From positions 1-51,714 of IMG/VR virus record IMGVR_UViG_3300005323_000054: DNA of 51,714 bases; one strand, given 5' to 3'. Below, in pieces: positions 2,723 to 43,883 of this stretch. The translations under genes were made by a program, and so were the position numbers. A model generated the notes under the pieces. The model had not been told where the DNA came from and did no database searches. It saw only the letters and a program-made list of their open reading frames with translations. Source of the DNA: a virus (Duplodnaviria > Caudoviricetes). The number at the start of each line of letters is the position of its first letter. The first letter of the stretch is position 1.

Positions 2723-3154
2723 TCAGAACACCGCCTTGAGTGCCCCGATGATATTGAAAGCGTTGTTCAGGAGAAGAAGGATAATAATCCCGAGGAACGC
2801 GAAGTAAATGTCGTGCCGGTCCACCATCTTACTGATGCCGTTTATCCTCTGATGAAGAGTCTCATCCCTTTTCTCACTCGCTTTTATTGCCTCTTCTTTC
2901 TCTTCACGGAACCGTTTCTCAAACTCCTCAAATTTTTTATTGAATGCGTCAGAGGTGACTTGCGTCGCCTGCATTTTAATGATAGATTCGCTCATCGTCG
3001 TCACGCTCTCTGCCATCCTTTCCATCGCAGATTCAAGCCGGGTTAACGACTTCGCCTGTTCCTCGGATTGTCCCTGCATCTTTGTCGTAGCGGTAAGGAG
3101 TTTGATAAACTCTTCCTGCTTCGCGCATTCGTGGCCTGTTTTCTCACCTGTCAT
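2723..3154 (-). CDS. Coiled-coil protein with one C-terminal transmembrane helix (XhlA/holin-like architecture)
   Basis: Long coiled coil followed by IYFAFLGIIILLLLNNAFNIIGAL; translationally coupled to the upstream gene. Confidence 0.55.
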   Translation of the reverse strand: MTGEKTGHECAKQEEFIKLLTATTKMQGQSEEQAKSLTRLESAMERMAESVTTMSESIIKMQATQVTSDAFNKKFEEFEKRFREEKEEAIKASEKRDETLHQRINGISKMVDRHDIYFAFLGIIILLLLNNAFNIIGALKAVF

Positions 3155-3360
3155 TTCTCATCCTCGTTCTTCTGGTCATCTTTCCATGCTTTTTCAGGGT
3201 CGAATCCGAGGAGCCTTACGACAGCCTCATCATCCCCGACATCCTCCGGGTCGTCTATCTCTTCCTTCGGGTCTTTTGCGAGGTCTTTCCTCCAATCCAC
3301 GGGCTTCTCCTCGGGGTCACCGTAAATGATAATCTCGTCGTCAAACAGTCCTTCCTTCAT
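3151..3360 (-). CDS. Small highly acidic protein
   Basis: 69 aa with about 26 Asp/Glu; ATGA overlap with the MuF-TopIB gene stop. Confidence 0.7.
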   Translation of the reverse strand: MKEGLFDDEIIIYGDPEEKPVDWRKDLAKDPKEEIDDPEDVGDDEAVVRLLGFDPEKAWKDDQKNEDEK

Positions 3361-5573
3361 GGCTTCATCCCCTCGAAGACTTCAGGAGCAATGTAATATT
3401 TCGCTGCGATTGTCGGGGTATTCCCGAGTTGCGCGGATACCCTTGTCGATACCGCCTTGACCAACTTCTGATACTCCCGCTTGCTCGTAGGTTTCGGGTA
3501 TTTCGCAATCTCGGCCTTCGCTATCCTCGTTCCGAGAACCGTCCTGAAGTCTTTCGTCCTGAAATCCCCTTTCCCGAGGGTCTTTGAATAGTCACGGAGA
3601 GACGATGCCGAGGTTTCAGGGAACAGTTGCCCGTTCTCCCCTGCGGATGCAGCGCGGGTCGAAAGAATACGGGCTGCGTCCTTGTCCGTGACAGGGATAG
3701 AGAGGTCTTTTCCTTCCTTCCCTACGAAGTTCAGGGTGACGGACCCGTCTTTACCGAGAGAGACGTGCCTACCTTCGAGCGTCGTTACGCCATACGCCTG
3801 TTTCTCGGCTTTCGTGTCCATCGTCGAGCCGGGCCGGACTCCCGTTGCCATTACGACAGAGAGACATTCGGCTTTCTCTGCGTTTAAGGGGTTTGCCATG
3901 TTATCCGCGTTCTCTGCCCGTATCTGGTCGAACTTCTTATCCAGTTCCTTGACCTTCTCGAATTTCTGGTCTTGTTTCATCTGGTTGAACCGCTCGTTAT
4001 ACATCCGAATGGTTCTTCCCTTCGTATCCTGACCCCTTACGAGTTCATCCGCATCGGGGTCTTCAGAGTATTCGACGTTAGTCCAGCCGGGCTTTGCGAG
4101 TTTCGCTACATAGTCGGGCGCGGGGGAACCGTCTGCCGTGACCCACGTTCCCTTCTCTCCGTTCGCGCCTTTCTGGTAAGTTGCTCCGGCCCGTCCACCG
4201 TTCCCTACGCTTCCCCCTCTCTCACCCAGTCTTCCCTCATGCATGAAATTCCCGCTTCCTGCTCCTCCGTGGAGAAGAATGGCGTTCTCCTCTGATATTT
4301 CTTCGCCATCCTCGAAGTCCTCCGGGCTTGTTACCTCGTCAGCCACATCGTAGCCCGGTATCACGGGTTCCCAGATACATTTACAGTTCGGGTGAAGGGG
4401 AAGGTCCGGCTCCTCTCCGAGATTGAACACCTGGTCCTCAATCTCTTCAGCGCAGAGGTCACAGCAATCGAAGGACCGACCAATGACCTGTTCAATCCCT
4501 CGGTCGTAATACGAGTTGACGTGCCCGGCGTTCCGGTGGCGCATGGTTTCCGTTCGAGCCACCATCGACGCATGGGATTTCATCGAGGTAAAGTAATCGT
4601 TGAGGTCGGCAGCGAGAGAGCCTTTTGGGTAATACCCAGTATCTCCCTCCTGTATCCGTCCAACCGGCCTGCCCTCGATGATTGCCTGCTTGATGAGGTC
4701 AGCGATATTCGCCCTCACATCCTCGTCAAGCGTCCCGGCTGACCATTCGACCTTCTTGCCGTTAATGAGGGTCTTTCCCTCGTTGACCAGAAGGGACCGG
4801 TAGTTGGTGGCGTATTCCACGGCTGACTTCTGAACGAGGGTCCAGTCAATCGCATACTTGTCTTTCCCCGTGACGCTCTGAAGGACGTTCGAGCCTTCGA
4901 CCTCTCCCTGAATGTAGGACTTGGTGGCTACGTCTACGAGGTCTTGCTGATACTCGGCCTTGAACGCTGCTGCTTCAGAAGATAGTTTCGAGGTTGCTGA
5001 ATCAACGACGGCTTTCTTCAGGGTATTTATCGGGGTCTCTGCGAGGAGTTTAACCCCGTCTACGTTGAGGACCATGTTCGCTTCAGGGTGTGTCGTGAGT
5101 GATGTGAACCCAAGCCCCTGATAGAACGTCTCTGCCGATGGGAGCGATTGAGTGATAATCGTCTTTCCCTCTCTCGCCGCCATTCCCGCGACATTCTGCA
5201 TTATCTCGGTTCCGGTCCCGGCTCGTTCCCCTGTAGTAGCGATATTGTCGAGGTAGACGTTGGTATTATAGAACTTTACGTCAGCAAGACCGAGGAGTTT
5301 TCCGTCGGGGTTACGGGCAATGATTAAATCCTCTCCTGACTTTGCGGCACGGAGAGCGATGCGGCTTGCTTCGTCGTTTTTCCAGTCTGTATTCAGGATT
5401 TCGTAATAGAGTTTATCCGCATCGTCAGATGAGCCGTAGTTTGCGAACGTCAGGGATACTTTCGAGGGAGTGGCGTTTGTCAGCCTCACCACTCGTTCCG
5501 GTCTCCGATAAAAGAGTTCAAGGGAGTTCAGGGCTGAAGACTCCCGGCAGGATGAACAGGCGCATTCACTCAT
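3357..5573 (-). CDS. MuF (minor head morphogenesis) protein fused to an N-terminal GNAT acetyltransferase and a C-terminal DNA topoisomerase IB
   Basis: GNAT: VYLDNIATTGERAGTGTEIM...AETFYQGLGF. MuF: MVARTE...CCDLC...LHPNCKC. TopIB: PGWTNV, GQDTKGR, TGVRPG, YGVTTL, FVGKEG, KDFRT, LGNTPTIAAKYYI. Lies directly downstream of the portal. Confidence 0.85.
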   Translation of the reverse strand: MSECACSSCRESSALNSLELFYRRPERVVRLTNATPSKVSLTFANYGSSDDADKLYYEILNTDWKNDEASRIALRAAKSGEDLIIARNPDGKLLGLADVKFYNTNVYLDNIATTGERAGTGTEIMQNVAGMAAREGKTIITQSLPSAETFYQGLGFTSLTTHPEANMVLNVDGVKLLAETPINTLKKAVVDSATSKLSSEAAAFKAEYQQDLVDVATKSYIQGEVEGSNVLQSVTGKDKYAIDWTLVQKSAVEYATNYRSLLVNEGKTLINGKKVEWSAGTLDEDVRANIADLIKQAIIEGRPVGRIQEGDTGYYPKGSLAADLNDYFTSMKSHASMVARTETMRHRNAGHVNSYYDRGIEQVIGRSFDCCDLCAEEIEDQVFNLGEEPDLPLHPNCKCIWEPVIPGYDVADEVTSPEDFEDGEEISEENAILLHGGAGSGNFMHEGRLGERGGSVGNGGRAGATYQKGANGEKGTWVTADGSPAPDYVAKLAKPGWTNVEYSEDPDADELVRGQDTKGRTIRMYNERFNQMKQDQKFEKVKELDKKFDQIRAENADNMANPLNAEKAECLSVVMATGVRPGSTMDTKAEKQAYGVTTLEGRHVSLGKDGSVTLNFVGKEGKDLSIPVTDKDAARILSTRAASAGENGQLFPETSASSLRDYSKTLGKGDFRTKDFRTVLGTRIAKAEIAKYPKPTSKREYQKLVKAVSTRVSAQLGNTPTIAAKYYIAPEVFEGMKP

Positions 5574-5583
5574 CCTTTACCCC

Positions 5584-7110
5584 TCACGGTTCGACGGAAT
5601 TAAGGATAGCCATTACTTTCTCGCTCATTCCGTCGATGGACTTGATAAGACCCGCATCAAGGTCTTTCTCCCCTACGGAGTTGGTCTGCCGGACCCTCCG
5701 CATACTCTGGGTCAACGGTGTTTCCTTCGTCATCTGGGTTACAGGGGATTGTCCGAACGGGCTTTGCAGGGCCGCGTCTCCCCCGAGAGAGTCCCATGCA
5801 GCCTTGTTCTCTGCAAGGGTCTTTTCGTCAGCGTCGTCTTCATCGAGCCATTCCCTGACGGTGTTCGGGTGAACGATTGCCCTCTTGTTACTCCCGAGGA
5901 CGAGCGTTGCCTTGTTGAGATTTACCTCTGACTTGTCGATGGAAGGCGCGGGAATGGTAATCTTCACACCCCAATCATCGTCAAACCCGTTCGGCTCGAT
6001 ATATGTCAGGCGTAAGAACTGTTCCCACATATTTTCTACTTTCGTAAGTTCAGACGCCGAATAATCGTTAATCATCTCGGCCTGCGCGTTATCGCTACCC
6101 CCGAGCCTCTGGCTCTCGCTGCCGTTGTTCAGGAGTTGCGTTGGGGAGACGTAGGAAATCATCAGCATATTGACGATTTTTATTGCCTCGTATAACGTCG
6201 TGCCTTCCTTGAACGGGAATACTTGGAACGTCACGCCTTCAGGAGCAATCGCTGTCGTGTTCTTATTCCAGTTCCGCAGGATTTTCTTCGTATCTTTAAT
6301 TTTATCGTCATCTGAATCGTCGGGAACGGTTGCGATGATGATAGGTCCGGCAATACGGTTGGCCTGCTGCATTGCGGCGTTCAGGAGGAACTTACTCATC
6401 TCGAAGAAGGGGAATAAGGGGTAAAAGGTCGGGTCACCGGCAACGAGTTCGCAGTCAGGAGCCGTCATTGCGTAACAGTTTGTTATCTGTTTCGTCACCG
6501 TGCCTTTCCCGATAGTCTGCCAGTATTGGGGGGTCGTCTCACCTTCTATAAGGACAATACCCTTGAGGAAATGCCCTTGATTCAGGATAGTTCCTTTCGG
6601 CTGGCCCGGGGTCTTGAACGTGTGCGGGGGGAGGTAGGTCAGTTCGTTGATGTTATAGGAGTTCGGCGTTGGGTTGCCCTTATGGTCCTTCCAGTCGCAG
6701 ACCGGCTCGAACGGCGCAATCCCAAACCATGAAATAGCGTCGAACGACTGCATCATGCGGGTATAGAAGTTGACCTTCGGCCTGTCCAGCATCTTCTTGA
6801 GCGTCTTTGACTGTTCCTCGTCCGTCTTTCCGTCCGGGTTAATCATCTCGACAGAATAGGGCTTGCGGAACAACATCGCCCTCTGCATTCTCTGGATACC
6901 CCGGCCAAACAGGTTCTTCGTCTTGTAGTTCTCGATACTGTCTGCCGTGAATACCTCGGAGTCAAACATGAACCCCGTATTCGTGACGTATCGCTGGCCT
7001 TGCGAGACCGTGGCGGGTGCTTTCCCTCCTGCGGCCTTCGTTACTTTCGGCGTAACTGCGGCGTGTTTTATCCGCATATCCGCCGCCAACTCCCCAAAAT
7101 GAACTGCCAT
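5584..7110 (-). CDS. Portal protein
   Basis: 508 aa between TerL and MuF; portal-like pattern (WFGIAPFE, GGSDNAQ). Confidence 0.75.
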   Translation of the reverse strand: MAVHFGELAADMRIKHAAVTPKVTKAAGGKAPATVSQGQRYVTNTGFMFDSEVFTADSIENYKTKNLFGRGIQRMQRAMLFRKPYSVEMINPDGKTDEEQSKTLKKMLDRPKVNFYTRMMQSFDAISWFGIAPFEPVCDWKDHKGNPTPNSYNINELTYLPPHTFKTPGQPKGTILNQGHFLKGIVLIEGETTPQYWQTIGKGTVTKQITNCYAMTAPDCELVAGDPTFYPLFPFFEMSKFLLNAAMQQANRIAGPIIIATVPDDSDDDKIKDTKKILRNWNKNTTAIAPEGVTFQVFPFKEGTTLYEAIKIVNMLMISYVSPTQLLNNGSESQRLGGSDNAQAEMINDYSASELTKVENMWEQFLRLTYIEPNGFDDDWGVKITIPAPSIDKSEVNLNKATLVLGSNKRAIVHPNTVREWLDEDDADEKTLAENKAAWDSLGGDAALQSPFGQSPVTQMTKETPLTQSMRRVRQTNSVGEKDLDAGLIKSIDGMSEKVMAILNSVEP

Positions 7111-7173: not shown

Positions 7174-8742
7174 CTATGCGAGATACGGGATACCTCCCTC
7201 ATCGTCCTCGGGAATGTCTCTTATCGCCGGCCCGTCTTTATCTCGTTTCTGTTCCTGTTCGTGCATCGTGAGTCTCGGAACCCCTGACGGTTCTTCGCGC
7301 TCCTGCACGTTATCCCCTGCCCGAAGGACCGACCGAACGTTCACGACCGAGAGCGCATACCTCAAAGCATCGACGAGGTGGAACTTGCTCTTGTCCTGAA
7401 TCGTCTTCTCTATCGGCTCCCCGAGCGCGTCAACTTCCCTCGAATATTCCCGTATCTGGGTCAGGAGTTCGACGCAGGAGTTGGCTATATACAGGCGTTT
7501 CATCTTCATCAGGCGAATGATACGGTCAATACCGGGCTCGACGTTGAATATCGCGGGTTCGTAGACGTGAACACCTCCCGTTCCCATATCTTTCCTGAAC
7601 TGCCCTTCTGACTTCGTTCCACCGACGACTTTGACCTTCCGATAATTACTCTTGGCCCGTATCTTGATGTTCGCCGCATGTTCGACGGTCACGAGTCCTC
7701 CTTCGTGGTGTTCCTCGAACACGTAGACTCTCCCGAGTCCCGGCTGTATTGCGACGTAGACGCTTGCGAAGTTCGTGCCGCCCGGGTCCACCCCGACAAT
7801 CACCCGGTCGCCCGCAGGGACAGGTTGATAGGGAATGACCATCGTCGTATCATCGAAGTCCGAGAAGATGGCTCCTGCCGGACGGTCATACTGACCCCGA
7901 TACCGCATCTTGAACTTCCAGTCGGGCATCGTCTCCTTTGCCTCGTAGTATTCCTCCTCCGGGAAATTGGGGTTCATGATGGAATCGAACTGGACGACCT
8001 CGATGTTGGGGTTTCCCGCTCTCCATCGGTCATAAATTTCCTTCTTCATCCACCCGTGGTTATAGAGGGTCGTTGTTCCGAGCACCCGTCCACGAGCGAG
8101 AGAAAGCCGAGCCCTGACAGAATCCCATGTGGCTATAGTGTAATCGTCGTTCCCTACCTCGTCCAGCCATGCAGCCTTTGCCGTCGCAGATTCAAGAGAA
8201 GTAACCCCGACGTTTGCCCCTCCTTTCGCTCCCTTCCCGGCTCGGGCAGACCGAAGGATAATACGGCCCCACATATTCGCCGTATCTCTCGAAGTTTCCG
8301 CGCCGAACTCGCCCGTGATAGGGTTACGGAGTTCGATGACACGGGTGCCGGCCCAATACCTGCCTTTCCCTAGAATATCGACAAAGACCTTGAGGATTTC
8401 AGGGAGCATCTTCATCTGGAACATTTCATACGAAGATGCGACGGCAAGGAAATCTCCCCCAGTCTCCATCCAGCCTTCCGGGGGCATCTCGTTATACCGT
8501 CCCTTATACGGGTCGAGATATTCGGGTTTGATACACGTCAGACATATCTCCTGCCAGAGCCACCACGGGCCAAGAGATGTCTTCCCTCCCTGCGTTCCCG
8601 CAAGCATGAAGATATACCGTGCTTCACTCTCCATTACCCGCCGTTGTCCCTCATGGAAGTCCAGTAAGAGGGCTCCTGAAGCGTCAAATGCGAATATCTC
8701 TTTCTGCCTCGCAAAAGGGAGAGGGATAGAGGCTGAACTCAT
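7174..8742 (-). CDS. terL: Terminase large subunit
   Basis: Walker A AGTQGGKT, Walker B AWLDE, coupling motif GTTT, nuclease motifs VGVDPG and HLVDALRY. Confidence 0.93.
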   Translation of the reverse strand: MSSASIPLPFARQKEIFAFDASGALLLDFHEGQRRVMESEARYIFMLAGTQGGKTSLGPWWLWQEICLTCIKPEYLDPYKGRYNEMPPEGWMETGGDFLAVASSYEMFQMKMLPEILKVFVDILGKGRYWAGTRVIELRNPITGEFGAETSRDTANMWGRIILRSARAGKGAKGGANVGVTSLESATAKAAWLDEVGNDDYTIATWDSVRARLSLARGRVLGTTTLYNHGWMKKEIYDRWRAGNPNIEVVQFDSIMNPNFPEEEYYEAKETMPDWKFKMRYRGQYDRPAGAIFSDFDDTTMVIPYQPVPAGDRVIVGVDPGGTNFASVYVAIQPGLGRVYVFEEHHEGGLVTVEHAANIKIRAKSNYRKVKVVGGTKSEGQFRKDMGTGGVHVYEPAIFNVEPGIDRIIRLMKMKRLYIANSCVELLTQIREYSREVDALGEPIEKTIQDKSKFHLVDALRYALSVVNVRSVLRAGDNVQEREEPSGVPRLTMHEQEQKRDKDGPAIRDIPEDDEGGIPYLA

Positions 8743-9209
8743 TTCTTGGCCCGGCTCGGTTTCTTTTTATCCGAGGTTCCCTGATAGATTTTCTCCTTTA
8801 CCAGTTCCCCTCCTTCTTTCCGTCTAACCATGTTGATGATAAGGGAGTTCGGGCTAAATAGCGGCTTTGTCGGGTCTCCTGCGAACATCATGTTATCTCT
8901 CTGACCGAGCAGTTGTTTCCCGAGCCATATCTGCATCGTGACGTTCCCTTTCTGTGCAGCCTCAAACTGGACCCTGCGGAGAGATGCTTTGGCATAGTTC
9001 AGCCCGTCATCCATCATGTCCATCGCTACGGGGTCACGCTGGATAGTATCGGCGGATACTCCGAGGACAGCAGCAACCTCCTTCTGGGTGCAGGCCATCC
9101 GGAACAGCCGCTTAATCAGTTCATACGCCGTTATCTCTTCCGTTGGCTCTCCATTCTTATCTCGGAGTGTTACTGACATCTTGGCAAGTTTCTTCGATTT
9201 CGCTGGCAT
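8739..9209 (-). CDS. terS: Terminase small subunit
   Basis: HTH CTQKEVAAVLGVSADTI plus GNVTMQIWLGKQLLGQRD; overlaps the terL start. Confidence 0.8.
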   Translation of the reverse strand: MPAKSKKLAKMSVTLRDKNGEPTEEITAYELIKRLFRMACTQKEVAAVLGVSADTIQRDPVAMDMMDDGLNYAKASLRRVQFEAAQKGNVTMQIWLGKQLLGQRDNMMFAGDPTKPLFSPNSLIINMVRRKEGGELVKEKIYQGTSDKKKPSRAKK

Positions 9210-9210
9210 C

Positions 9211-10083
9211 TCATTCCTCTCTGTTCATCTTGAGTTCCATCCCGTAGTTATCGACACCATCGGGGATTACGACCCCCTTCTTCAGGACGAGTTTGTTGTT
9301 CTTAAACGGAGAATAATCGACGTGGTGATGCCATCGTCCGAATCTCCATACTACCTTCGACACGTCGGGGTGCATCGCTACCTGCATTTGGCTCTTGGGT
9401 AAGGTTCCTTCCTTCGAGTAAAACTGTTCCGTATTCCCGCCCTTAATCACCTGTGTCGGCATCTTATACCCGAGGAACGCATTGAATTGGCACGTCACCC
9501 ATCCGTCCTTCAAGGCTCGAAGGGATAGGTCAGTATCCTCGTTATATCGACCCCGCCAGCGATACGGGATATTGTTCTTGATGAGGAGCATCGAGTATAT
9601 CCTCGTATTCAGGACAAAGGGAGGCATCTTCTGTTTCCTCGACGCAAACATGAAGTAGTTGGGCCCGGCTATTGCGACGTTGATATAGCGGTCGCAGAAG
9701 TCTTCCATTGCCCTGAATATCGTCCCATCGGATACCGGGACTTTCAGGTTATTATACAGGCGATAGAATCCGTTAACGTTATCGTCAAAGACCCAATGCC
9801 GTTCCGCTCCGAGGGTGATTGAGTGGTCCCAACAGAAATTCCTCGCTGCCCCCGGTCCTTTACTCTTCGTGTTCCCGAGGTCGTCAAACGTGTCATACTC
9901 CTCGTAGTATTTCGGAGGCATTACGAGGATGTTCTCGGGAGCGATAACCTCTGCATATGCCTCATACTCTCCTTCGTCAATGACGATATAATAAGGGACG
10001 TTCAGGGCTTCAAATGATTTCGCCGTCAGTCTCGATTCTGCCCGACCCTTCGAGACGATATAAACGGGGTATCGCGGGTTCAT
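9211..10083 (-). CDS. GREB1/TET-associated (TAGT-like) glycosyltransferase
   Basis: VYIVSKGR, ARNFCWDHS, HWVFDDN, NTRIYS, RYNEDTDLSL and GGNT motifs typical of phage TAGT/GREB1-like enzymes. Confidence 0.8.
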   Translation of the reverse strand: MNPRYPVYIVSKGRAESRLTAKSFEALNVPYYIVIDEGEYEAYAEVIAPENILVMPPKYYEEYDTFDDLGNTKSKGPGAARNFCWDHSITLGAERHWVFDDNVNGFYRLYNNLKVPVSDGTIFRAMEDFCDRYINVAIAGPNYFMFASRKQKMPPFVLNTRIYSMLLIKNNIPYRWRGRYNEDTDLSLRALKDGWVTCQFNAFLGYKMPTQVIKGGNTEQFYSKEGTLPKSQMQVAMHPDVSKVVWRFGRWHHHVDYSPFKNNKLVLKKGVVIPDGVDNYGMELKMNREE

Positions 10084-10952
10084 TTCTTCTTACCTCGAAC
10101 TTTCGAGGTTGCGGGTTTTTTCTTGGGCGTTTCCTTCGGAGGTTCGACGATATGGACATCTTCTGTCGGAGTTCCGACGAACGCTTTATTTTTTATCGGC
10201 TCGATTTTGGCCTTGGGGAACCAGATGAACCGAGTTCTTTTAAGTATCGTCTGACCTACGAGAGCAGAGAACGATTCGACATCTTCCCACGTCTCGAAGT
10301 GGATAATGACGGATTTTATACCCATCTTATCGGCCTGCGTGAACTCAGGCATCCCTTTCCATTCCTTCTCGTGGTCAAGAGGAAGAGGGTTCATTGCCCC
10401 GAGGACATTCCCGAACTCCCCGTCATTATACCCGATAGTTTCGAGGTCAATCCCTACGTCCTGCAATCCTTCGAGGATACCGGCAAGTTTCGGCATATCC
10501 CAGTCTCCCGTTATCCGGTTCAGAGCGATACCGAGCGCCTGTCTTGTCTCTGGGGTCAGGTGAGGGAGTTCCGCGTCACTGAACGCCCACGATATCCCTC
10601 CGAGCGTCAGGGCATAGAGCGCAGTCTCTCCCCGCTCAAGCAGTATCTTTAACCTCTGATGACCCCCGATAACAATCTTCGTCTCCGTATCATAGACGAT
10701 AGGGTCAACCAGTCCAAAGGTCTTCATCGAGGTCGATATCCTCTGATATTTCGAGTCCTTCGGCTTTAGGTCTGCCCTCGGATTATCGGGGTCAGCAATA
10801 AGAGAGCCGATTGCGATTACCGAGGTCATCAGGGGCTTTTTAGGAGACCGCACTTGGGGCAACGTCTCGTCTGACGCTCCCTTCTTCCCGCTCGCTTTCG
10901 CGGGGTTTTTCTTCTCCGGAACAGGGTCTTTTTGAATGGTTTTACGTGCCAT
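10080..10952 (-). CDS. ParB/Srx-like N-terminal domain protein with a C-terminal WxGMPEF domain
   Basis: DPDNPR...SMKTFGLVDPIV...IGGHQRL...ALNRITGDWD; C-terminal WKGMPEF...IIHFET...IWFP. Confidence 0.8.
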   Translation of the reverse strand: MARKTIQKDPVPEKKNPAKASGKKGASDETLPQVRSPKKPLMTSVIAIGSLIADPDNPRADLKPKDSKYQRISTSMKTFGLVDPIVYDTETKIVIGGHQRLKILLERGETALYALTLGGISWAFSDAELPHLTPETRQALGIALNRITGDWDMPKLAGILEGLQDVGIDLETIGYNDGEFGNVLGAMNPLPLDHEKEWKGMPEFTQADKMGIKSVIIHFETWEDVESFSALVGQTILKRTRFIWFPKAKIEPIKNKAFVGTPTEDVHIVEPPKETPKKKPATSKVRGKKK

Positions 10953-16652: not shown

Positions 16653-17489
16653 TCAATACCATCCCCATTCATCCGCCGTTTCTCTTGGGGGATTTACAAT
16701 CTGCTCTCCCCACCTTCGCAGGCCCGGGGGGAACTCCTGCCGGACATTATCACATACGAGGGCTTTCTTCATGCTGCCCTTGAGGAATATCGCAGGTTTA
16801 TTCGGGAGGGCTTCGAGGGCTCTGTCGAGAGTAATCCAGTCCATCAAGGGAAGGTTCTTCATAGGGTCCGGGGTCTTCGCTCCAATGATAATCCACGGTA
16901 TCCCTCTGAAATCCGTCTTTCCTCCGCAGGTAACGTCTCCGAGGAGCGGTTCGATGGAGAGAAAGAGGTTGCGGGTCATACAGGCCGAATTACAGAGCCG
17001 GTCAACCTTCCAAGCGTCTTTCTCGCTCGTTATCGTCGTGCCGAACCAACAGTTCTTCGGGAGGTTGGCTTCGTGATACCTCGCCCAGTCGTGAAGGAGC
17101 CGGTTCATGTTCTCGGGGTCTTTCGTCAGGAATAAGAAACGATGTTTCTCTCCTTCGTTCTTGAGTGCCGTCAGTAAGAGGTCGTCGATATACTCGAACT
17201 CCTGCCATTGCCCGAAGGTATCCCCCATAGAATTAATGAAAATCCTTGACGGTTTCTTGATTTTCAGGGGAGCGTCAATCTTCTCGTGGTTGGTTGTAGG
17301 ATGGTTCATCCCGTTCGGATACCGCTCCGGGAAGCGTATCATCATCCGTGCGGCGTAACAGTCTTTTCCGAGAGGACATATATGCTGGATGTCTCCGTTG
17401 GTATCTACAACGAGAAGTTCACGGTTCCTGCATCCATTCGAGGAATTGACCGTTGCATCGCACCAGTCGATTTTCGTATTTTCAGCCAT
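16653..17489 (-). CDS. DUF5131 (phage Gp37/Gp68) family protein
   Basis: MAENTKIDWCDATVN..GC...CYA, IFINSMGDTF, FLTK, WFGTTI, FLSIEPLL, WIIIG. Confidence 0.88.
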   Translation of the reverse strand: MAENTKIDWCDATVNSSNGCRNRELLVVDTNGDIQHICPLGKDCYAARMMIRFPERYPNGMNHPTTNHEKIDAPLKIKKPSRIFINSMGDTFGQWQEFEYIDDLLLTALKNEGEKHRFLFLTKDPENMNRLLHDWARYHEANLPKNCWFGTTITSEKDAWKVDRLCNSACMTRNLFLSIEPLLGDVTCGGKTDFRGIPWIIIGAKTPDPMKNLPLMDWITLDRALEALPNKPAIFLKGSMKKALVCDNVRQEFPPGLRRWGEQIVNPPRETADEWGWY

Positions 17490-25342: not shown

Positions 25343-25602
25343 TCTTCGTCCTCTCCGTCTCTTTCTATTTCCTCAAACTCTTCATCAGATATGTCCTCCT
25401 CGGTCTTCTGGAATACAAGCCCGGGATGTTTTGTTGAGAGGGATTCGAGGTTTGCAGAAAGACAGTAAACCATCTGGGTATGATTTCTCTCGTCTCCCGG
25501 GATGTGGTCATTCTGGCAGTAATCGAGATGTGGACAGGGGAAATCGCTCCGGCAACACATCTTCTCGTAGAGTTCGTCACAGATATTAGCACATTCGCTC
25601 AT
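25339..25602 (-). CDS. Small Cys-rich acidic protein
   Basis: Coupled ORF. Confidence 0.5.
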   Translation of the reverse strand: MSECANICDELYEKMCCRSDFPCPHLDYCQNDHIPGDERNHTQMVYCLSANLESLSTKHPGLVFQKTEEDISDEEFEEIERDGEDEE

Positions 25603-26642
25603 TTCTTCACCAACTGCGCGAGAATCTTCTGCGCCTGCCCGAGTAACGGGTCTCCTTCCATCGCCCGGACAAACCGGTTCTCCCTTGCGGATACCGTGTC
25701 GTTGATGGGCCGGACGTGCTGCTGGTATGCGGCAAGTGCGTTATACATCCCCCACGATGTTCCCTCGAACTTCTCTTGGTCGGGAGCCGAGGAATAGATG
25801 TTGAACACATCCTGCCGTGCCTGCTGGATATTGATAATCGTCTGGGGCGACACGGGTTCAGGGACTCCGTTCTTTATCTTCGGCACCGGGTCCGGGAAGA
25901 GTGCTTCGAGAATCTTGGGGATTTCGTCTGCGTAGACGTTGGCCTCATACATCGCGGTTGCGACCTCGGGCATCTTCTCCATGTAGACCTTGACGGCACG
26001 GAGAGTTTCACGGGCTTCTTCGAGTTTCGCGTTCATGTCGCCGGTATGGTGGGTTGACCAGATCCGCTTTGACCCCGAGATTGCCATCGTGAGGGTGTTG
26101 TTACAGACTACCCGTATCGGGGTGAGACAGACACGGACACCGGTTGAACCGTCGTGTGAGTTCTCGAACAGGAGGAACGGCTCAACTTGGTCTCCGAGGA
26201 TAGTGACACCGGTCATCTTTGCGAGCATCCAGACACGCTTTCCGTCGAAGAGTGAGCCTGCCGTGTGGAAGTGCGCTCCTCCTTCCTGTCCGATAAGAGC
26301 GTCAACGAAGTCGAATGCATCTGCATTCTGACAGATTTTGTATCTGTCCGTGACGACCCCGAGAATCGACTTGTCGCTCTCCCTGATATTCACCATTGCG
26401 TTCGGGACCGGGATGAAGTCCATAGGTTCGACTTTAAAGGTTCCGTCTTGCTGAAGGGTGTTCTCCCATCGTGTCGGGATGAATGCACGTTCTCCCCTAA
26501 CAGGAGAATCGATACCTGCAAGTTTCTCGGCTTCTCTTCCGGTCATTGCGTGGTCTACCTTCGTTCCGAGCCCGTGCCACGGCGCAAGGCCTGTGTATAC
26601 CATCTGGGCTTTTCCGTTCTTGATTTCAAGTTCGTGTGACAT
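25599..26642 (-). CDS. DUF932 (phage/plasmid-like TIGR03299) family protein
   Basis: True start MSHELE (26642); PWHGLG, LGVVTDRY..CQN, HTAGSL..GKRVW, NSHDGS, TPIRVVCNNTL, GTSWGMYNA. Confidence 0.9.
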   Translation of the reverse strand: MSHELEIKNGKAQMVYTGLAPWHGLGTKVDHAMTGREAEKLAGIDSPVRGERAFIPTRWENTLQQDGTFKVEPMDFIPVPNAMVNIRESDKSILGVVTDRYKICQNADAFDFVDALIGQEGGAHFHTAGSLFDGKRVWMLAKMTGVTILGDQVEPFLLFENSHDGSTGVRVCLTPIRVVCNNTLTMAISGSKRIWSTHHTGDMNAKLEEARETLRAVKVYMEKMPEVATAMYEANVYADEIPKILEALFPDPVPKIKNGVPEPVSPQTIINIQQARQDVFNIYSSAPDQEKFEGTSWGMYNALAAYQQHVRPINDTVSARENRFVRAMEGDPLLGQAQKILAQLVKK

Positions 26643-26658
26643 ACTGATTTCTTCTCCT

Positions 26659-27018
26659 TCATATGATGAGTTCTGATTTCCCCTCATAGAGGGCTTTCTC
26701 CCGTTCGATACTCTGGTTGATGAGGTGAAGACGGTCTCCTGCTGCCTGAATGACTTTGATAAGCCTCTCTGCAACTTCCGGGGAGAGTTTTGACGGTTTG
26801 TGGTTTGACTGAAGAGCGATATCTTCTCTTTTACCTCCTTCGACTTCGCGGAAATATACCGGGAGGAACGTATAGGAATGGTCAATATGGACCATCGGAG
26901 CGCCACTAACGTATTCTTTCGGGAGGTCTTCGAGAGACTTCATTCCGTCAATCATAAGCGATACTTCTCTTTCCCCGTCTTTCGACAGGGTTCTTTCAAT
27001 AGTGATTTTAATTGCCAT
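26659..27018 (-). CDS. Hypothetical protein
   Basis: 119 aa; strong RBS; flanked by identical 19-bp RBS/start repeats. Confidence 0.65.
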   Translation of the reverse strand: MAIKITIERTLSKDGEREVSLMIDGMKSLEDLPKEYVSGAPMVHIDHSYTFLPVYFREVEGGKREDIALQSNHKPSKLSPEVAERLIKVIQAAGDRLHLINQSIEREKALYEGKSELII

Positions 27019-34108: not shown

Positions 34109-36184
34109 TCATACTCCCTTCATGAATTGATAATGTCCGGGATGCCCTTGAACTTCAAAGATAGTCCCGTCTTTCCTCAATCCTTCGATAGTCTCAAGAA
34201 TCTTCATCCTTGACCCTTTCCCTCGTTTGGCGATGTCTTCCGCCACGGCTTCCGCAGAGACCATATGAATCTCGGCTCCCTTCTGCCGCATATCCCAGAT
34301 TACGTGTTCAATCAGCCCACGTTTATCGTGGCTTACCCCGGCAGGTCCGATTTTATCGCTGTCGAATGTTCCGGTTTTCTCATCCCATGCCACTCCCTTG
34401 AGTGACTGTTCAAGGATTCTGATGGCTACCTCTGCATCTTCGAGGGTAACTTCCCGTGCCAGCCGCATCTTGGCGTGAGCGGTGGCGATACGTTTGAGAG
34501 ACCCCGTTGCCCGTGCTGTCAGAGGGACCGCCCCGCCTTTCTTCGCCTTCGACCTGATAGAGACGTAATACTTGATAATTTTCTCCTTCGCTGCGGCGTT
34601 GAGTTCCGGGTTCGGCTGTTTCTTGGTATAGGCAACGAATTTCCGTAGTAACTCGACCTGAATATAGTCGATTACCCCGTTGGTTTTGTTGAGGATAGTC
34701 GTTGCGATTTCCGTGTCCTTCGCTTCATTCGGCTCGTCGTTCTTGAGGTAAATCAGGTCATACCGTGAAAGGATTGCTCCCCCTGCGACAATCTGTTCGG
34801 CAAGGTCAGCGTTCATATCGAACCGGCCATACTTCGGGTTGGCTACCCCGAGAACCCCGCACCGGGAGTTCATGGTCAGATACAACCCGGCTTTTGCGAC
34901 GGTGATTTTCTGGGTCTCCATCGCTTCGAGCGCGGCATCCCGGTCCTTCGGATGAAGTTTGTCCATCTCGTCTATGACGATAATCCCGAGGTCTGCGAGG
35001 GGCATTGCCCCCGCTTCTGCCTGAAATCTCCCGTCTCCTCCTTCGTCTTTCGTGACGGATACCGTGAGACCGGCTTTACTCGTCGATTGGCCTGATACGT
35101 AGATGGCACGGGGAACGAGTCTTGTTACGGCGAGAGCAACCTTTGACTTCGCCAGCCCGTAATCCCCTACAACGAGAACGTGAACGTCCATCCGGTCCGT
35201 ATCTCCGTTCGGCTGAATCTCCTGCCGTCCCGAGAACATTGCGAGAGCGTATGCGTGTTTCACGTCATCGAACCCGTAGATGTTTGGGGCGATTGATGCC
35301 GCCACCCTGTCGAAGATATTAGGGCTTTTTGCGAGTTTCCTTATTTCTTCCTCGTCCTCTTCTGACAGCGTAACCTCTTCAAATTCCCTCTCGTGAACCT
35401 CGATACTGTTGACTTCGAGGTAGGTATTGAACGTGGGGGTGGGGGTCCCGGAAGCGTATTTCTGATACGACCTGACAATGCCGTTGACGATAATCCGGTC
35501 TCCCGGAAAGACTTTGCCGCAGAGGTCATCCCGAAGTTCTGCGTTCATCATCTGGGCTTGCTCTCCCCCGGAAAGACTCTCGACAACTTCCTGAATCTGG
35601 ATTCTCTGGGTATCCGTAAACTTCGACCGTTTCGGAACAAAGTCAAGTTTCTTGAAAGTGCATCCGTCGGTCGCGCATCCATCGGGAATAGTCCACTTCG
35701 TAGAGTGTTGCTTCTTAACCGTAAAGTGTCCTGCCTTACACCTGAAGATAGATTCCAAGCAGAGCGGCAGGATACTCGATACCCGTTTCACCTGAACGTC
35801 GAGAGCAACCATCCGGTTGATGTGGTCAACCCGCAGGTTCTTGATGAAGGTTTTCTTCGTCAGTCCGGTGAACCGAACGACAATCCCTTTCGCCGGGGTC
35901 TTCCCGTCTTTCATGACGATAAGATGGTTATCCCGTATGGCATCCTGACAGTCCTCGATTGCCTTCCCGGGATTCTCTAGGATTTCTTCGGCAAGTTGTA
36001 TCCCTCCCGGCCCGGCACTCGCAACCTCGTTATACGGGATTACGAGAGAACGACGGTGCGGATATTCGCGCTGGATGATGGCGATTTCTTTCTTGACGAG
36101 TTTCCTCTGAAAGACTTTCGCCCACGCCTCTTGAGGGTCAAACGTCTGAACCCCTGCGCTATCCGTATCAGGAGAGGCAGGCAT
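34109..36184 (-). CDS. mcm: MCM replicative helicase (archaeal type)
   Basis: Zn finger CKAGH...CATDGC; Walker A variant VGDYGLAKS, STSKAGLT, Walker B IDEMDK, EAME.Q, ANPKYGRFD, arginine finger SRYD, TAR; C-terminal wHTH. Confidence 0.95.
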   Translation of the reverse strand: MPASPDTDSAGVQTFDPQEAWAKVFQRKLVKKEIAIIQREYPHRRSLVIPYNEVASAGPGGIQLAEEILENPGKAIEDCQDAIRDNHLIVMKDGKTPAKGIVVRFTGLTKKTFIKNLRVDHINRMVALDVQVKRVSSILPLCLESIFRCKAGHFTVKKQHSTKWTIPDGCATDGCTFKKLDFVPKRSKFTDTQRIQIQEVVESLSGGEQAQMMNAELRDDLCGKVFPGDRIIVNGIVRSYQKYASGTPTPTFNTYLEVNSIEVHEREFEEVTLSEEDEEEIRKLAKSPNIFDRVAASIAPNIYGFDDVKHAYALAMFSGRQEIQPNGDTDRMDVHVLVVGDYGLAKSKVALAVTRLVPRAIYVSGQSTSKAGLTVSVTKDEGGDGRFQAEAGAMPLADLGIIVIDEMDKLHPKDRDAALEAMETQKITVAKAGLYLTMNSRCGVLGVANPKYGRFDMNADLAEQIVAGGAILSRYDLIYLKNDEPNEAKDTEIATTILNKTNGVIDYIQVELLRKFVAYTKKQPNPELNAAAKEKIIKYYVSIRSKAKKGGAVPLTARATGSLKRIATAHAKMRLAREVTLEDAEVAIRILEQSLKGVAWDEKTGTFDSDKIGPAGVSHDKRGLIEHVIWDMRQKGAEIHMVSAEAVAEDIAKRGKGSRMKILETIEGLRKDGTIFEVQGHPGHYQFMKGV

Positions 36185-38690: not shown

Positions 38691-39200
38691 TTATGACGGA
38701 GGTGTTGGGAACACAACCTCTGACGGATTCTTGAAGGTCTCGGTTATATCACGGAGCGCCCGACGATTCTCCTGCCATTCCGCTTTCTTCGATTCTGTCA
38801 GAGGAGAATCTGGCAACTGCGTCCAATCGGATTGAGCCAGAAGATAGTTCCGATACCCTCTAACAGCATCCCAGAGATTTTCTTCATCGAGTTTCGCCGT
38901 TGCGATATCGGAAGAGAACTTATCATCGACTGCTTTTCGTGCGGCTGCATTGTCGGAGTTAATCTGCTCGTTTTGTGCGGCGATGCCCTTTATCTGCGCT
39001 TCCAGTTGTGCGAGACGATTGATATATTCCAGTTTTGTTGCCGGTCTCTCAATCATGCCGGCTTTCAGACCGGTGAGTTCTGCCCTTTGTTCTGCATCCG
39101 ATACCTGCGCTACAGGTTCCGGGTATTCTCCCCGGGCTACCTTTGCATAGACGATACGATTCAGTTCTGTTTCCAAAGTTGTTTCCATCATTTTTAGCAC
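38691..39200 (-). CDS. Tail fibre assembly chaperone
   Basis: VRGYRNYLLAQSDWTQLPDSPL...WQENRRALRDI...FPTPP. Confidence 0.85.
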   Translation of the reverse strand: MLKMMETTLETELNRIVYAKVARGEYPEPVAQVSDAEQRAELTGLKAGMIERPATKLEYINRLAQLEAQIKGIAAQNEQINSDNAAARKAVDDKFSSDIATAKLDEENLWDAVRGYRNYLLAQSDWTQLPDSPLTESKKAEWQENRRALRDITETFKNPSEVVFPTPPS

Positions 39201-40021
39201 CCGCAGGCCATCATGTTCGCGCTTCCCATACCGACACCTGATAAATTGTCGGTAGAGGGTGTGAGGTATCTGATGATGATGACCCCGCTTCCCCCAGTTC
39301 CACCTGAATACGTCCCGGCGTTCTGGTTCCCTCCGTTCCCCCCATTGCCCGTATTTGCCGTTCCGCTAGATCCATTTCCGGCGGTTCCATTTATCCCTCC
39401 GCTACCCCCCGTAGAATAAGTTACCGAAGCCCCCGATATTGTATTTTCATTGCCAAGCCCTGCGGTTATCGCTCCACCCCCGGCAGAATTTGCACCCCCC
39501 CCACCGGCACCATCATATCCAGACGAGGTCCCTCCGTTATGTCCAATTCCGTTATATATGGCAGTTCCTCCTGAATTTCCACCAGTATATTTCCCTGCAC
39601 CCCCACCCCCAGAACCTCCATTCCTTCCGGTTGTCCCTCCACCACCACCGCCCCCCTTGGCGGTTTTAGACCCAAAGATACTGTCATTTCCATCGCTACC
39701 CGCAGTTTGGCTCCCAGACCCCCCGGGACCCCCACTACCGATAGTGATTGTCTGGGGGCCAGAAACGACAAGCCCCGTGCCATAAAAATAATCTCCGGCG
39801 CCCCCTCCCCCGCCAGCACCGATATTTGTTCCAGACGCTCCGCCACCACCACCCCCAGCGATTACCAAATATTCAACTTCGGCGGAACCTCCTTGGGGGG
39901 TCCAAGTAGTTGTCCCATCTGTAGCCCTCCAAATCCATTTATGGAGGAGATACAGCCCATCAACCCCATCATACCGCGTGGTATTTCCGTCTATTACGGG
40001 GTCGCTCCATACAACAGCCAT
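39194..40021 (-). CDS. Glycine-rich domain tail fibre/receptor-binding protein
   Basis: VEYLVIAGGGGGG...ANTGNGG...GGSGVIIIRY. Confidence 0.8.
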   Translation of the reverse strand: MAVVWSDPVIDGNTTRYDGVDGLYLLHKWIWRATDGTTTWTPQGGSAEVEYLVIAGGGGGGASGTNIGAGGGGGAGDYFYGTGLVVSGPQTITIGSGGPGGSGSQTAGSDGNDSIFGSKTAKGGGGGGGTTGRNGGSGGGGAGKYTGGNSGGTAIYNGIGHNGGTSSGYDGAGGGGANSAGGGAITAGLGNENTISGASVTYSTGGSGGINGTAGNGSSGTANTGNGGNGGNQNAGTYSGGTGGSGVIIIRYLTPSTDNLSGVGMGSANMMACGC

Positions 40022-40025
40022 TTAA

Positions 40026-41093
40026 TCACTCATCCGAGAAGTTGTTGGTCGTGTAACTGATGAGCCACCCGAGGACAGTGATGTCTCCGGTATAGGTATC
40101 CGACCCGGTGCGGCCTACCCTGAATTGGGTCCAGTTATTCCCCGCAGGTGTCCCGGCAATCGTTATAGCGCTTGTTGCCGGACCCGCTACGACTTTCCCG
40201 GCGATTGAAGATGCTACGGTGATAGTGCTTTCCTGTTTTGTCCCGTATGCTGCATCCCCTGCGCCGCCGCTTGCATAGGCCACCCCTGCGAGAGATAGGA
40301 TAATCGTGTGGTTACTGGCATCAGTTGAAGACGGGACGAAAATATATGGTATTGCCGTTATCGCGCCACCACTGTAGTTCTTCGGCATCGGCAACCCGAA
40401 TTCCTTGAAGACATCCGAGGCCCCCGCTGCGAAAAGAGCCCCGTTGAAATTCACTTTGTTTGTTGAAGTTTCTGTTTTTGTGACTGCACCTGCCGGGGCT
40501 GTTGTTGGGAGCCATCCGCCAACGCATGATAGAAATATCGTGCGTTTCGGAGTATTCGGGTTCACTCCTTCTTTCAGGAGTTTTCCGGTGGTTTCATCGA
40601 AGAGGGCCATTGCCCCGTCAGTTGCAGATGCAGGGCCGACAACATCTCCAGGTGTCCCTATAGCATCAGCAACGGCCTTACTCGTAGGAACTGTTGTATC
40701 ATCATCTCCGAGAGTTTCAACGATGATAACCCCAGACCCGTCAATAGTATCAGTATTCTCTCCGTCAGCAACGAGGATAGCACGGTCAACCGCTCCGGTA
40801 GACCCCCCCCATCCAATACCTCCGAGTGGGATTTTCTGGGTTCCGTCTGAATGAAAAACGTGGTTTGCGTTCCCGTCGAGTTTCGGCATCAGACCGTGTT
40901 TGGTGATACTTGCATCCCCTTTCGTAAGGTTACTCGATGCAAGGTCTTCAATCGCAATTTCATCAGCCCCTCCTTCGATATGGGCTGACATATGCCCTTT
41001 GATAAAGGCAATCATGGCATTCCATTTCGACGCGAGGATAGGATGAGCGTTGTCGAAATCAATCATTATCTCATCCCAAGCCATTTCAAACAC
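40026..41093 (-). CDS. Tail fibre/minor tail protein
   Basis: HGLMPK and GDVVGPASATDGAMALFD fibre motifs; beta-rich C-terminus. Confidence 0.7.
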   Translation of the reverse strand: MFEMAWDEIMIDFDNAHPILASKWNAMIAFIKGHMSAHIEGGADEIAIEDLASSNLTKGDASITKHGLMPKLDGNANHVFHSDGTQKIPLGGIGWGGSTGAVDRAILVADGENTDTIDGSGVIIVETLGDDDTTVPTSKAVADAIGTPGDVVGPASATDGAMALFDETTGKLLKEGVNPNTPKRTIFLSCVGGWLPTTAPAGAVTKTETSTNKVNFNGALFAAGASDVFKEFGLPMPKNYSGGAITAIPYIFVPSSTDASNHTIILSLAGVAYASGGAGDAAYGTKQESTITVASSIAGKVVAGPATSAITIAGTPAGNNWTQFRVGRTGSDTYTGDITVLGWLISYTTNNFSDE

Positions 41094-41850
41094 TCCTATT
41101 AACGTCTGTCATGAACAATCCTGCCCATCGTTTTGCCGGATATTTCACCCTGACGGAAAACGTCGATGAAACCACGGCATAGGCGTTCGTCACCGTGCAA
41201 GTTACCGAATACGTCCCTGTCAGCGTATACGTGTGAGTGGGGTTCTGCGAGGTTGAAGTTCCCTCTCCTGTCCCAAACGACCAGAGCCACGAAAGAGGGG
41301 ATTCTGTTGCCGATGCCGAGAAGTCTACCTCAAGTGGTTTGTTTCCAGTAAGCGGGTCTCCCGTTGCAGAGAGGACCGGAAGGTTATAGGTGATGATTAC
41401 ACATCCGTATGAACCAGCCCCACCGTCACCGTCGTAATACCGCGCGCCTCCTCCCCCGGCACCATATCCTACACCGGCTGCACCTCCGGCCCCGTATTCT
41501 GTGCTCCCGCCGGGTTGAGCGTTTCCTCCGCTACCATATCCATTTTCACCGGCAGTCGGGCTGTCGAATACCTGATGCCCCCCCATAGCACCTGCTTCGG
41601 CAGTAACCCCGAATGCGGTTGAACTTTGGCCGTAGGTTTGTCCTACAACAATGTTGTAGGTTGACCCGGAAGATACCGGTGTAAGGCTCCCCGTCTTAAT
41701 CTCCCCGTGCTTCCCCCCAAGACCTGATGCATTAGAAACAGGATTCCCCCCGGGCCCCCCGGCACCTACGATAATATAATCAACGTGCGTCACGCCGGCA
41801 GGAGCGACAAACTGACCGTTCGCAGTAAATACCGCAGTTACAACCGTCAT
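41086..41850 (-). CDS. Glycine-rich plus PKD domain tail protein
   Basis: VDYIIVGAGGPGG...; PKD motif GNKPLEVDF...WLWSFGTG...QNPTHTY..GTYSV. Confidence 0.8.
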   Translation of the reverse strand: MTVVTAVFTANGQFVAPAGVTHVDYIIVGAGGPGGNPVSNASGLGGKHGEIKTGSLTPVSSGSTYNIVVGQTYGQSSTAFGVTAEAGAMGGHQVFDSPTAGENGYGSGGNAQPGGSTEYGAGGAAGVGYGAGGGGARYYDGDGGAGSYGCVIITYNLPVLSATGDPLTGNKPLEVDFSASATESPLSWLWSFGTGEGTSTSQNPTHTYTLTGTYSVTCTVTNAYAVVSSTFSVRVKYPAKRWAGLFMTDVNRSV

Positions 41851-41851
41851 C

Positions 41852-42670: not shown

Positions 42671-42673
42671 GTC

Positions 42674-43882: not shown

Positions 43883-43883
43883 C

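Follow-up and report, generated by a model that had tools for sequence, protein, structure and literature searches.

Why should a viral head protein end in a topoisomerase? The question is raised by one gene of the IMG/VR virus record IMGVR_UViG_3300005323_000054, whose 51,714 bases (estimated completeness 96%) are called the window here. The gene lies on the minus strand, which holds almost all long open reading frames (ORFs) of the window, and it encodes a GNAT-type acetyltransferase, a MuF-type minor head domain, an acidic linker and a type IB topoisomerase (TopIB) on one polypeptide (Table 1). A reading made from the letters and translations alone, called the sequence-only reading below, had proposed this architecture; each element that it listed for the gene was found where it had placed it, and profile searches and structure models confirm that the three domains are real. 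We put the probability at roughly two in three that this is a portal-associated minor head protein of the MuF type, by which two enzymes reach the capsid of a siphovirus-like tailed virus, probably one of archaea.

A three-domain head protein

The C-terminal part matched PF01028 (Topoisom_I) over residues 528–724 with an E value of 2.4e-22 and 79.8 bits, against a cut-off of 23.7 bits, and the same model reached 83.5 bits in a six-frame search of the window. The catalytic set is complete, as the sequence-only reading had stated: R580 (in RPG), K619 (GK), K674 and R677 (KDFRT), N718 (LGN) and Y727, the second Tyr of YYI. These residues are all kept in two full-length homologues, P0003 and P0004, and their columns are invariant or nearly so in alignments of 67 and 41 family members. 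A profile built from four family members matched Deinococcus radiodurans TopIB in the PDB (2f4q; E 6.8e-20; chain residues 17–297), a span that takes in the small N-terminal domain. In this alignment the family's RPG Arg, GK Lys, KDFRT Lys and Arg, LGN Asn and (S/Y)YI Tyr fall on the catalytic residues of the D. radiodurans enzyme as given in passages of PMC2666729, according to which bacterial enzymes have Asn in place of the poxvirus His.

An AlphaFold2 (AF2) model of residues 470–738, computed from a 41-sequence alignment, had a mean predicted local distance difference test (pLDDT) of 94.5 and a predicted template-modelling (pTM) score of 0.89. Its top Foldseek matches were variola TopIB–DNA complexes (E about 1e-11; template-modelling score by query 0.72–0.74), among them 3igc (E 9e-12 over 291 columns), and D. 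radiodurans TopIB (3m4a, 2f4q) and human Top1 were also among the best; tyrosine recombinases appeared only at E > 0.01. The structure prediction that the sequence-only reading had named as a check on the fold thus came out for TopIB. The domain has the two-domain fold and the Arg-Lys-(Lys)-Arg-Asn-Tyr set of the short enzymes of D. radiodurans, variola and vaccinia, and shares with those of D. radiodurans and Pseudomonas aeruginosa the Asn where the poxvirus enzyme has His. Unlike the solved bacterial enzyme, to which it is about 23% identical, it is tethered to a head protein and not free-standing. Judged from its residues and predicted fold, it is very probably catalytically competent.

The middle of the protein is recognised by head-protein families. 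Twelve PHROG families matched the fusion protein, ten of them in the head-and-packaging category at residues ~185–424, including head morphogenesis and minor head proteins, one 'head maturation protease' and one 'portal protein'. The best were phrog_4728 (E 3.5e-13) and phrog_115 (E 6.5e-9), and the nine families labelled head morphogenesis or minor head protein ranged from E 3.5e-13 to 2.2e-3; two matching families carry no function, one at residues 280–415 and the other, phrog_23460, on the TopIB part. By tblastn the protein matched a 217-residue 'head morphogenesis' gene of Methanomicrobiales virus vir524 (E 1e-16). The MuF core, expected at ~4375–4560, lies at residues 339–399 and consists of ARTE (339–342, with RTE at 340–342), FDCCDLC (368–374) and HPNCKC (394–399); these motifs and the Cys/His cluster that they contain (C370, C371, C374, H394, C397 and C399) are invariant across the family alignment. 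The gene also stands where MuF genes do, directly after the portal gene, in the order small terminase-like (TerS-like), large terminase (TerL), portal, fusion. Its start lies 10 nt past the portal stop and is preceded by a purine-rich stretch, and its last 4 nt are shared with the start of the ORF that follows.

The fusion thus resembles SPP1 gp7 and Mu gpF in its place directly downstream of the portal gene, in its RTE and Cys/His core, in its PHROG head matches and in a predicted, weakly supported contact with the cognate portal. It differs from them in having enzymes on both sides of the MuF domain, gp7 and gpF being single-domain proteins as described in passages of PMC5576092, and in escaping the Pfam model of their family, PF04233. 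This escape could mean that the MuF domain is a remnant and the protein no virion component, its TopIB serving replication or recombination in the cytoplasm, possibly by circularising the genome or by attaching covalently to its ends through a 3'-phosphotyrosyl bond. Some phages do have a stand-alone TopIB gene that lies in no recognisable head module, such as top1E in Bacteroides phage BS162P1. A remnant is nevertheless hard to reconcile with core motifs and a Cys/His cluster that are invariant in the family, with PHROG head matches down to E 3.5e-13 and with the tight coupling of fusion and portal genes at three loci; the distance to the replication genes (MCM) is 30 kb. We regard a cytoplasmic enzyme as highly improbable.

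N-terminal to the MuF domain, Acetyltransf_10 matched residues 78–164 (about 5082–5342; E 2.2e-4) slightly below its cut-off, in agreement with a GNAT motif set that had been noticed at ~5100–5330, and a precomputed database annotation of the identical protein gives PF13673. The domain is weak by sequence but clear by structure. The AF2 model, of moderate quality in this part (pLDDT 60–87), has the order β1-α1-α2-β2-β3-β4-α3-β5-α4-β6, which is that of the GNAT fold. Foldseek returned 105 matches in the PDB at E ≤ 0.001, and all matches listed are acetyltransferases or GNAT-fold toxins; with identities of 12–19% they are generic to the fold. Structure neighbours in the ESM Atlas are GNAT/RimI-like. 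The pyrophosphate-binding loop of GNAT enzymes has the consensus Q/R-x-x-G-x-G/A. The loop ERAGTG at residues 116–121, in which G119, T120 and G121 are invariant in four of four family members, fits such an acetyl-CoA pyrophosphate-binding loop, its first position being Glu in the window and Arg in P0005. F150, Y151 and G155 of an FYxxxG stretch are likewise invariant in the family. No close relative of the domain that has been characterised was found, and among 243 candidates there was no stand-alone short GNAT homologue (30–404 residues) at E ≤ 0.001.

Two metagenomic homologues cover 99% of the protein, P0003 (783 residues, 44% identity) and P0004 (801 residues, 39% identity), and share its three domains and all motifs; a third metagenomic relative, on a 2.6-kb contig, spans the GNAT–MuF part. 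Since two independent homologues at 39–44% identity and 99% coverage keep all motifs, the fusion is beyond chance. The loci of these homologues, L006 and L007, have the same order of terminase, portal and fusion, with portals 47–48% identical to that of the window. Because these loci repeat both the gene order and the downstream series of ORFs, the comparison indicates that selection has kept this architecture in a small clade of viruses and that it is no assembly accident. The CxCxxC cluster near the N-terminus is possibly a metal site; residues 1–39 have pLDDT < 50, and its region is thus low in model confidence.

TopIB as a recurrent module of head proteins

The sequence-only reading had called the topoisomerase an unusual cargo, and this part of it did not hold. 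A word-indexed search with the TopIB part retrieved 42 proteins of 405–1292 residues at 32–51% identity, the window protein included. Portal families are present in 19 of them (PF06381 in 13, PF06074 in four, PF04860 in two) and Phage_Mu_F in two, one of which has a portal domain too; NUDIX, InPase, His_Phos_1, 2H and DRAT domains also occur. The family is large: searched exhaustively with HMMER, it came to 4024 cluster representatives for E ≤ 0.001 and to 843 for E ≤ 1e-30. Related modules are 40–50% identical and usually C-terminal on portal or MuF proteins. A Pfam scan of 67 of the 142 representatives first retrieved by HMMER, taken in rank order, found PF01028 in all 67, with Phage_portal_3 (17), Portal_Mu (2) or Phage_Mu_F (4) as carriers and InPase (6), ADPrib_exo_Tox (4), NUDIX (2) and ART-PolyVal (1) as further domains. 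By this survey TopIB is a common head-protein cargo of uncultured phages, and one for which no description was found in the literature searched. Cultured phages with a portal–TopIB or MuF–TopIB fusion may exist in so large a family.

The module ends at most 30 residues from the C-terminus in 155 of 184 proteins. Carriers of these 184 were labelled with the TopIB region masked and with Pfam-labelled seeds, a cruder procedure than the Pfam scan. A carrier was recognised in 67: 50 are portal3-type (two of them also Portal_Mu), two Portal_Mu only, three HK97-type (one also MuF) and 12 MuF only. In the remaining 117, many of which are short or truncated, no carrier was recognised. On a FastTree phylogeny of 184 TopIB domains (one row with a match of fewer than 220 positions dropped, the window domain added) the portal label changes 35 times, with at least 13 changes forced by well-supported branches, and the MuF label nine times, with at least five forced; the labels are nonetheless more clustered than in shuffles. 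So many changes imply that the module has passed from one carrier to another again and again, in the manner of polymorphic cargo cassettes.

The pairing with an acetyltransferase recurs as well. The sequence-only reading had proposed a survey of MuF architectures for GNAT with TopIB. A homologous GNAT is joined to TopIB in two further architectures: among 186 proteins searched, the family GNAT profile hidden Markov model (HMM) found two TopIB proteins outside the family, P0024 (E 2.3e-12) and P0072 (E 9.2e-10). P0024 has the layout motif–GNAT–motif–unknown–motif–TopIB, and its GNAT domain, 38% identical to that of the window over 101 residues, matches phrog_1917, a 'virion structural protein'. 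In P0072 the GNAT domain (residues 72–175) is followed by TopIB at about residues 241–504 and by about 300 more residues. The pair, found in three architectures and few cases, is suggestive of a functional link between GNAT and TopIB.

In the window, TopIB is joined to the MuF domain by residues 408–470, which have a net charge of −9 and pLDDT < 50 and confirm the acidic linker that had been noticed before. Within them lies the Gly-rich junction motif, which had been singled out before at ~4209–4271 and is kept in P0003 and P0004. Its commonest form is GN-aromatic-G-H-x-G-R-P-G-x-V-G-G-S, in up to five copies per protein, bracketing modules. A motif of this type stands at most 70 residues upstream of TopIB in 16 of the 184 proteins. 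Among the 168 with enough upstream sequence, a second type (acidic-x-x-H-P-R-x-x-x-G-x-F) precedes TopIB in 72, and some recognisable junction motif does so in 104. We found no description of these motifs in the literature searched, which comprised the main texts of open papers. They may serve in processing or in docking, or may do no more than link modules; if they mark processing or docking signals, they could help to predict cargo boundaries.

Junction motifs were also seen in modular phage head proteins such as P0006, P0024, P0096, P0167, P0179 and others. P0167, a metagenomic MuF–TopIB polyvalent protein of 1813 residues, carries five copies, together with an intein/HINT segment and a DUF559/Vsr-like endonuclease.

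Two published surveys describe comparable proteins. With GNAT, MuF and TopIB on one polypeptide within a head module, the fusion qualifies as a polyvalent protein. Like the proteins so named in passages of Iyer et al. (2017, PMC5512222), it combines several enzymatic domains with a MuF/portal packaging domain in a late-gene context, and the GNAT, NUDIX, InPase, 2H and ADP-ribosyltransferase partners of its TopIB family are shared with them. Unlike those in the main text of that survey, it has a TopIB, comes from a probable archaeal virus and is small (738 residues). With the MuF polymorphic toxins (Jamet et al., 2017, PMC5576092) it shares a MuF carrier, a variable C-terminal enzymatic domain and a small ORF directly downstream; it differs from those in the main text in that its C-terminal part is a housekeeping-type DNA enzyme and no listed toxin, and in that it has an N-terminal cargo too. 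In the main text of PMC5512222 'topoisomerase' occurs in a reference title only and TopIB is absent from the domain list, and the main text of PMC5576092 has no mention of topoisomerase, acetyltransferase, GNAT or archaea. In the main texts of open papers we found no account of a TopIB joined to a portal or MuF protein; closest comes a 2022 preprint, in which PF01028 figures in a list of genes of one marine jumbo-phage group. The fusion is thus a case of polyvalent or MuF-cargo logic with a TopIB cargo beyond the main-text lists of both surveys. It would add TopIB to their catalogue, as an example from an archaeal virus, where passages of PMC5512222 report such proteins to be scarce.

Probable host, proposed delivery and site of action

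Which cell would such a protein be delivered to? The window encodes an MCM helicase, and the 19 phage-collection records that match it are all archaeal viruses (24–29% identity for the 15 listed). The portal matches one record of the collection only, that of a Methanomicrobiales virus, and in this collection portal and MuF domain match this same virus alone (vir524 for MuF). Because of the MCM helicase and these matches, the host is likely archaeal, perhaps methanogen-related. No provirus was found in GTDB species genomes, so there is no direct host assignment, and no close relative was found in IMG/VR; each gave a single distant match, to MuF only (26% and 24% identity for IMG/VR and GTDB). 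Passages of PMC2621148 record TopIB from eukaryotes, poxviruses, mimivirus and some bacteria and infer its loss in Euryarchaeota and Crenarchaeota; in archaea it is reported for Thaumarchaeota only (passages of PMC2621148; abstract of PMC4824112). The statement in the sequence-only reading that TopIB is not a normal euryarchaeal enzyme agrees with these sources, and the host lineage itself is probably without TopIB.

We propose that the MuF domain docks the fusion protein to the portal during procapsid assembly, and it is probably this domain that takes the protein into the procapsid. GNAT, N-terminal to MuF, and TopIB, C-terminal to it, would both be cargo, with TopIB hanging on an acidic tether of about 60 residues that is predicted to be disordered and includes the conserved junction motif. 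TopIB needs neither ATP nor a divalent cation, and for this reason it could act in places that lack an energy source, both in or at the capsid and on viral DNA during its entry into the cell. Its likeliest job would be to relieve torsional stress of this DNA when it is delivered and when it is first transcribed or replicated. Once delivered, the GNAT domain would probably use acetyl-CoA of the host to acetylate a protein or a small molecule; the sequence-only reading had suggested host chromatin proteins or tRNA.

Poxvirus TopIB is carried in the virion. This analogy makes us lean towards a TopIB that acts on the viral genome during delivery or shortly afterwards, as do the domains that travel with the module, which include several injected effectors according to passages of PMC5512222. 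The same paper argues that enzymes fused to MuF and portal proteins are packaged and then injected. If TopIB is packaged, tailed viruses of bacteria and archaea would share the poxvirus habit of a particle-borne TopIB, and the question would be which topological problem a genome faces within seconds of ejection or inside the capsid. T4 Alt-type internal enzymes are targeted by a capsid-targeting sequence. The fusion would instead be targeted by a MuF/portal tether, and its chemistry is different; what it would share with T4 Alt, as proposed, is the principle of an enzyme that is stored in the head and enters the cell along with the DNA (passages of PMC5512222).

Several observations weigh against this account of a packaged and delivered protein. 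PF04233 (Phage_Mu_F) gave no match to the fusion protein even at E ≤ 1, TIGR01641 (SPP1 gp7) scored 22.1 bits, below its cut-off of 39.65, and the GNAT Pfam score of 21.7 bits lies slightly below the cut-off of 23.6. The predicted portal–MuF complex lends weak support to docking, being weak by the tool's own calibration. It scored 0.35, against 0.00 for the best of three controls, with contact agreement between runs of at least 44% and a partner pLDDT of at least 65. The mark was reached by 58 of 80 solved complexes and two of 110 mismatched pairs, and at 0.60 or less by only seven of the 80 solved complexes and by both passing mismatches. The archaeal host is a probable one, argued from the MCM helicase and the portal and MuF matches. 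No record of virion proteomics or of activity was found for the fusion protein or any relative, and few molecules per capsid would make a small dose. CCCTT is the cleavage pentamer of poxvirus and Deinococcus TopIB. It is neither enriched nor avoided in the genome, with 121 copies found against 130.7 ± 11.5 expected (at least 121 copies in 82 of 100 shuffles), so no sequence trace of TopIB targeting was seen.

Many relatives, moreover, are fused directly to portals, which stay in the capsid, and a role inside the capsid fits these at least equally well. Since portals remain with the particle, the strongest rival explanation is that the portal-tethered TopIB never leaves and acts as a swivel, freeing twist from the packaging motor or from ejection. 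Direct C-terminal fusion to a portal is the commonest recognised architecture (19 of 42 proteins; 17 with Phage_portal_3 plus two with Portal_Mu of 67; 55 of 184), and a cofactor-free enzyme on a long disordered tether would be able to reach DNA near the portal. The company of NUDIX, InPase, ADP-ribosyltransferase and 2H domains speaks for delivery, however, tightly packed DNA leaves scant room for controlled rotation, and processing at the junction motifs could set the cargo free. We consider a swivel confined to the particle rather unlikely.

The gene that follows the fusion bears on a further alternative. In all three loci the 3' end of the fusion is overlapped by a very acidic ORF of 63–74 codons, whose product has a net charge of −11 to −16 and begins similarly each time, with M-x-E-G-[LI]. 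The three copies have no significant BLASTP similarity to each other, and their orthology therefore rests on position, size, charge and the first five residues. The product might partner TopIB as a DNA mimic or in an immunity-like way, or it might instead take part in head assembly. In the study of MuF toxins, immunity genes reportedly occupy the position directly after the toxin genes. The fusion protein might accordingly be an effector directed at the host or its defences, in which TopIB relaxes or nicks host DNA and upsets supercoiling or a topology-sensing defence while GNAT inactivates a protein or tRNA. Its architecture fits polyvalent and MuF-toxin logic, and the tRNA-acetylating toxins AtaT and TacT are among the GNAT structural neighbours (ranks 4, 35 and 40). 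Those neighbours are, however, generic to the fold, the likeness of the small ORF to immunity proteins or DNA mimics is supposition, and one or two enzymes would be a weak weapon against a whole chromosome with active host topoisomerases. The viral CCCTT count is as expected, so the virus would have no protection by site avoidance. A host-directed effector appears improbable to us.

Action on the entering viral genome remains the reading that we prefer. A broader account would join its parts to the family-wide findings: a widespread class of capsid-borne TopIB would serve as a cofactor-free swivel, attached to portal or MuF proteins via junction motifs, shuffled as a cassette and delivered with the genome or acting on it; in this virus it would fill the host's lack of TopIB, work with GNAT and be curbed in the producing cell by the acidic ORF product as a DNA mimic or immunity-like inhibitor. 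Taken as a whole this chain is tentative, and we think it doubtful that all of its links hold.

Surrounding genes and coordinates

Table 1. Positions of the features discussed, in the window unless a locus is named, with the evidence for each.
Feature	Position	Strand	Details and evidence
Fusion gene GNAT–MuF–linker–TopIB	3357..5573	−	738 aa, ATG start, no internal stop; stop codon 3357–3359
N-terminal CxCxxC cluster, residues 4–9	5547..5564	−	C4, C6 and C9 invariant in 4/4 family members
GNAT-fold acetyltransferase domain, residues ~40–180	5034..5456	−	Pfam, AF2 topology, Foldseek
MuF-type minor head/head morphogenesis domain, residues ~196–407	4353..4988	−	PHROG, tblastn, motifs
Acidic linker, predicted disordered, residues 408–434	4272..4352	−	pLDDT < 50, net charge
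Gly-rich junction motif, residues 435–455	4209..4271	−	core GN-aromatic-x-H ... GGS, just upstream of TopIB
Type IB topoisomerase, complete, residues 471–738	3360..4163	−	N-terminal β-sheet domain and catalytic domain
Codon of predicted nucleophile Tyr727	3393..3395	−	alignment with family and D. radiodurans TopIB
Portal protein (Portal_Mu)	5584..7110	−	PF06074 E 7.9e-11; 10 nt upstream of fusion
Large terminase	7174..8742	−	phrog_2 E 7.8e-28
Small helix-turn-helix protein, probably small terminase	8739–9209	−	upstream of the large terminase
Small acidic ORF, 69 aa	3151..3360	−	net charge −15; start overlaps fusion end
Small acidic ORF of L006	L006 6827–7051	+	overlaps fusion 3' end
Small acidic ORF of L007	L007 10033–10224	+	overlaps fusion 3' end
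~145-aa protein after acidic ORF	2723–3154	−	hydrophobic C-terminal tail
~145-aa protein after acidic ORF, L006	L006 7044–7496	+	hydrophobic C-terminal tail
MCM helicase, full-length	34109–36184	−	OB (oligonucleotide/oligosaccharide-binding), P-loop and lid domains

An ORF of about 150 codons follows the acidic ORF in all three loci, and the translations from the window and L006 have a hydrophobic tail; this protein may be a scaffold or a membrane-active protein. The 384-codon ORF at 1043–2197 has no family match and no similarity to the 485-codon ORF at the same relative place in L006. Neither a capsid protein nor a prohead protease was identified.

The packaging genes are directly preceded by two ORFs at 9211–10083 (−) and 10080–10952 (−), which encode a TET-associated glycosyltransferase (PF20691, E 2e-40; phrog_842) and, next to it, a ParB-like/DNA-methyltransferase-related protein. 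This pair suggests that the viral DNA is hypermodified. A siphovirus-type tail module at 39194–47020 (−) encodes a 753-residue tape-measure-like protein, Dit, a Sipho_Gp37-like protein and a pair of Gly_rich_2 proteins, with a PKD domain in one of the pair. DUF932 (E 2e-49) and DUF5131 (E 2e-31) proteins are encoded at 25599–26906 (−) and 16653–17489 (−), respectively.

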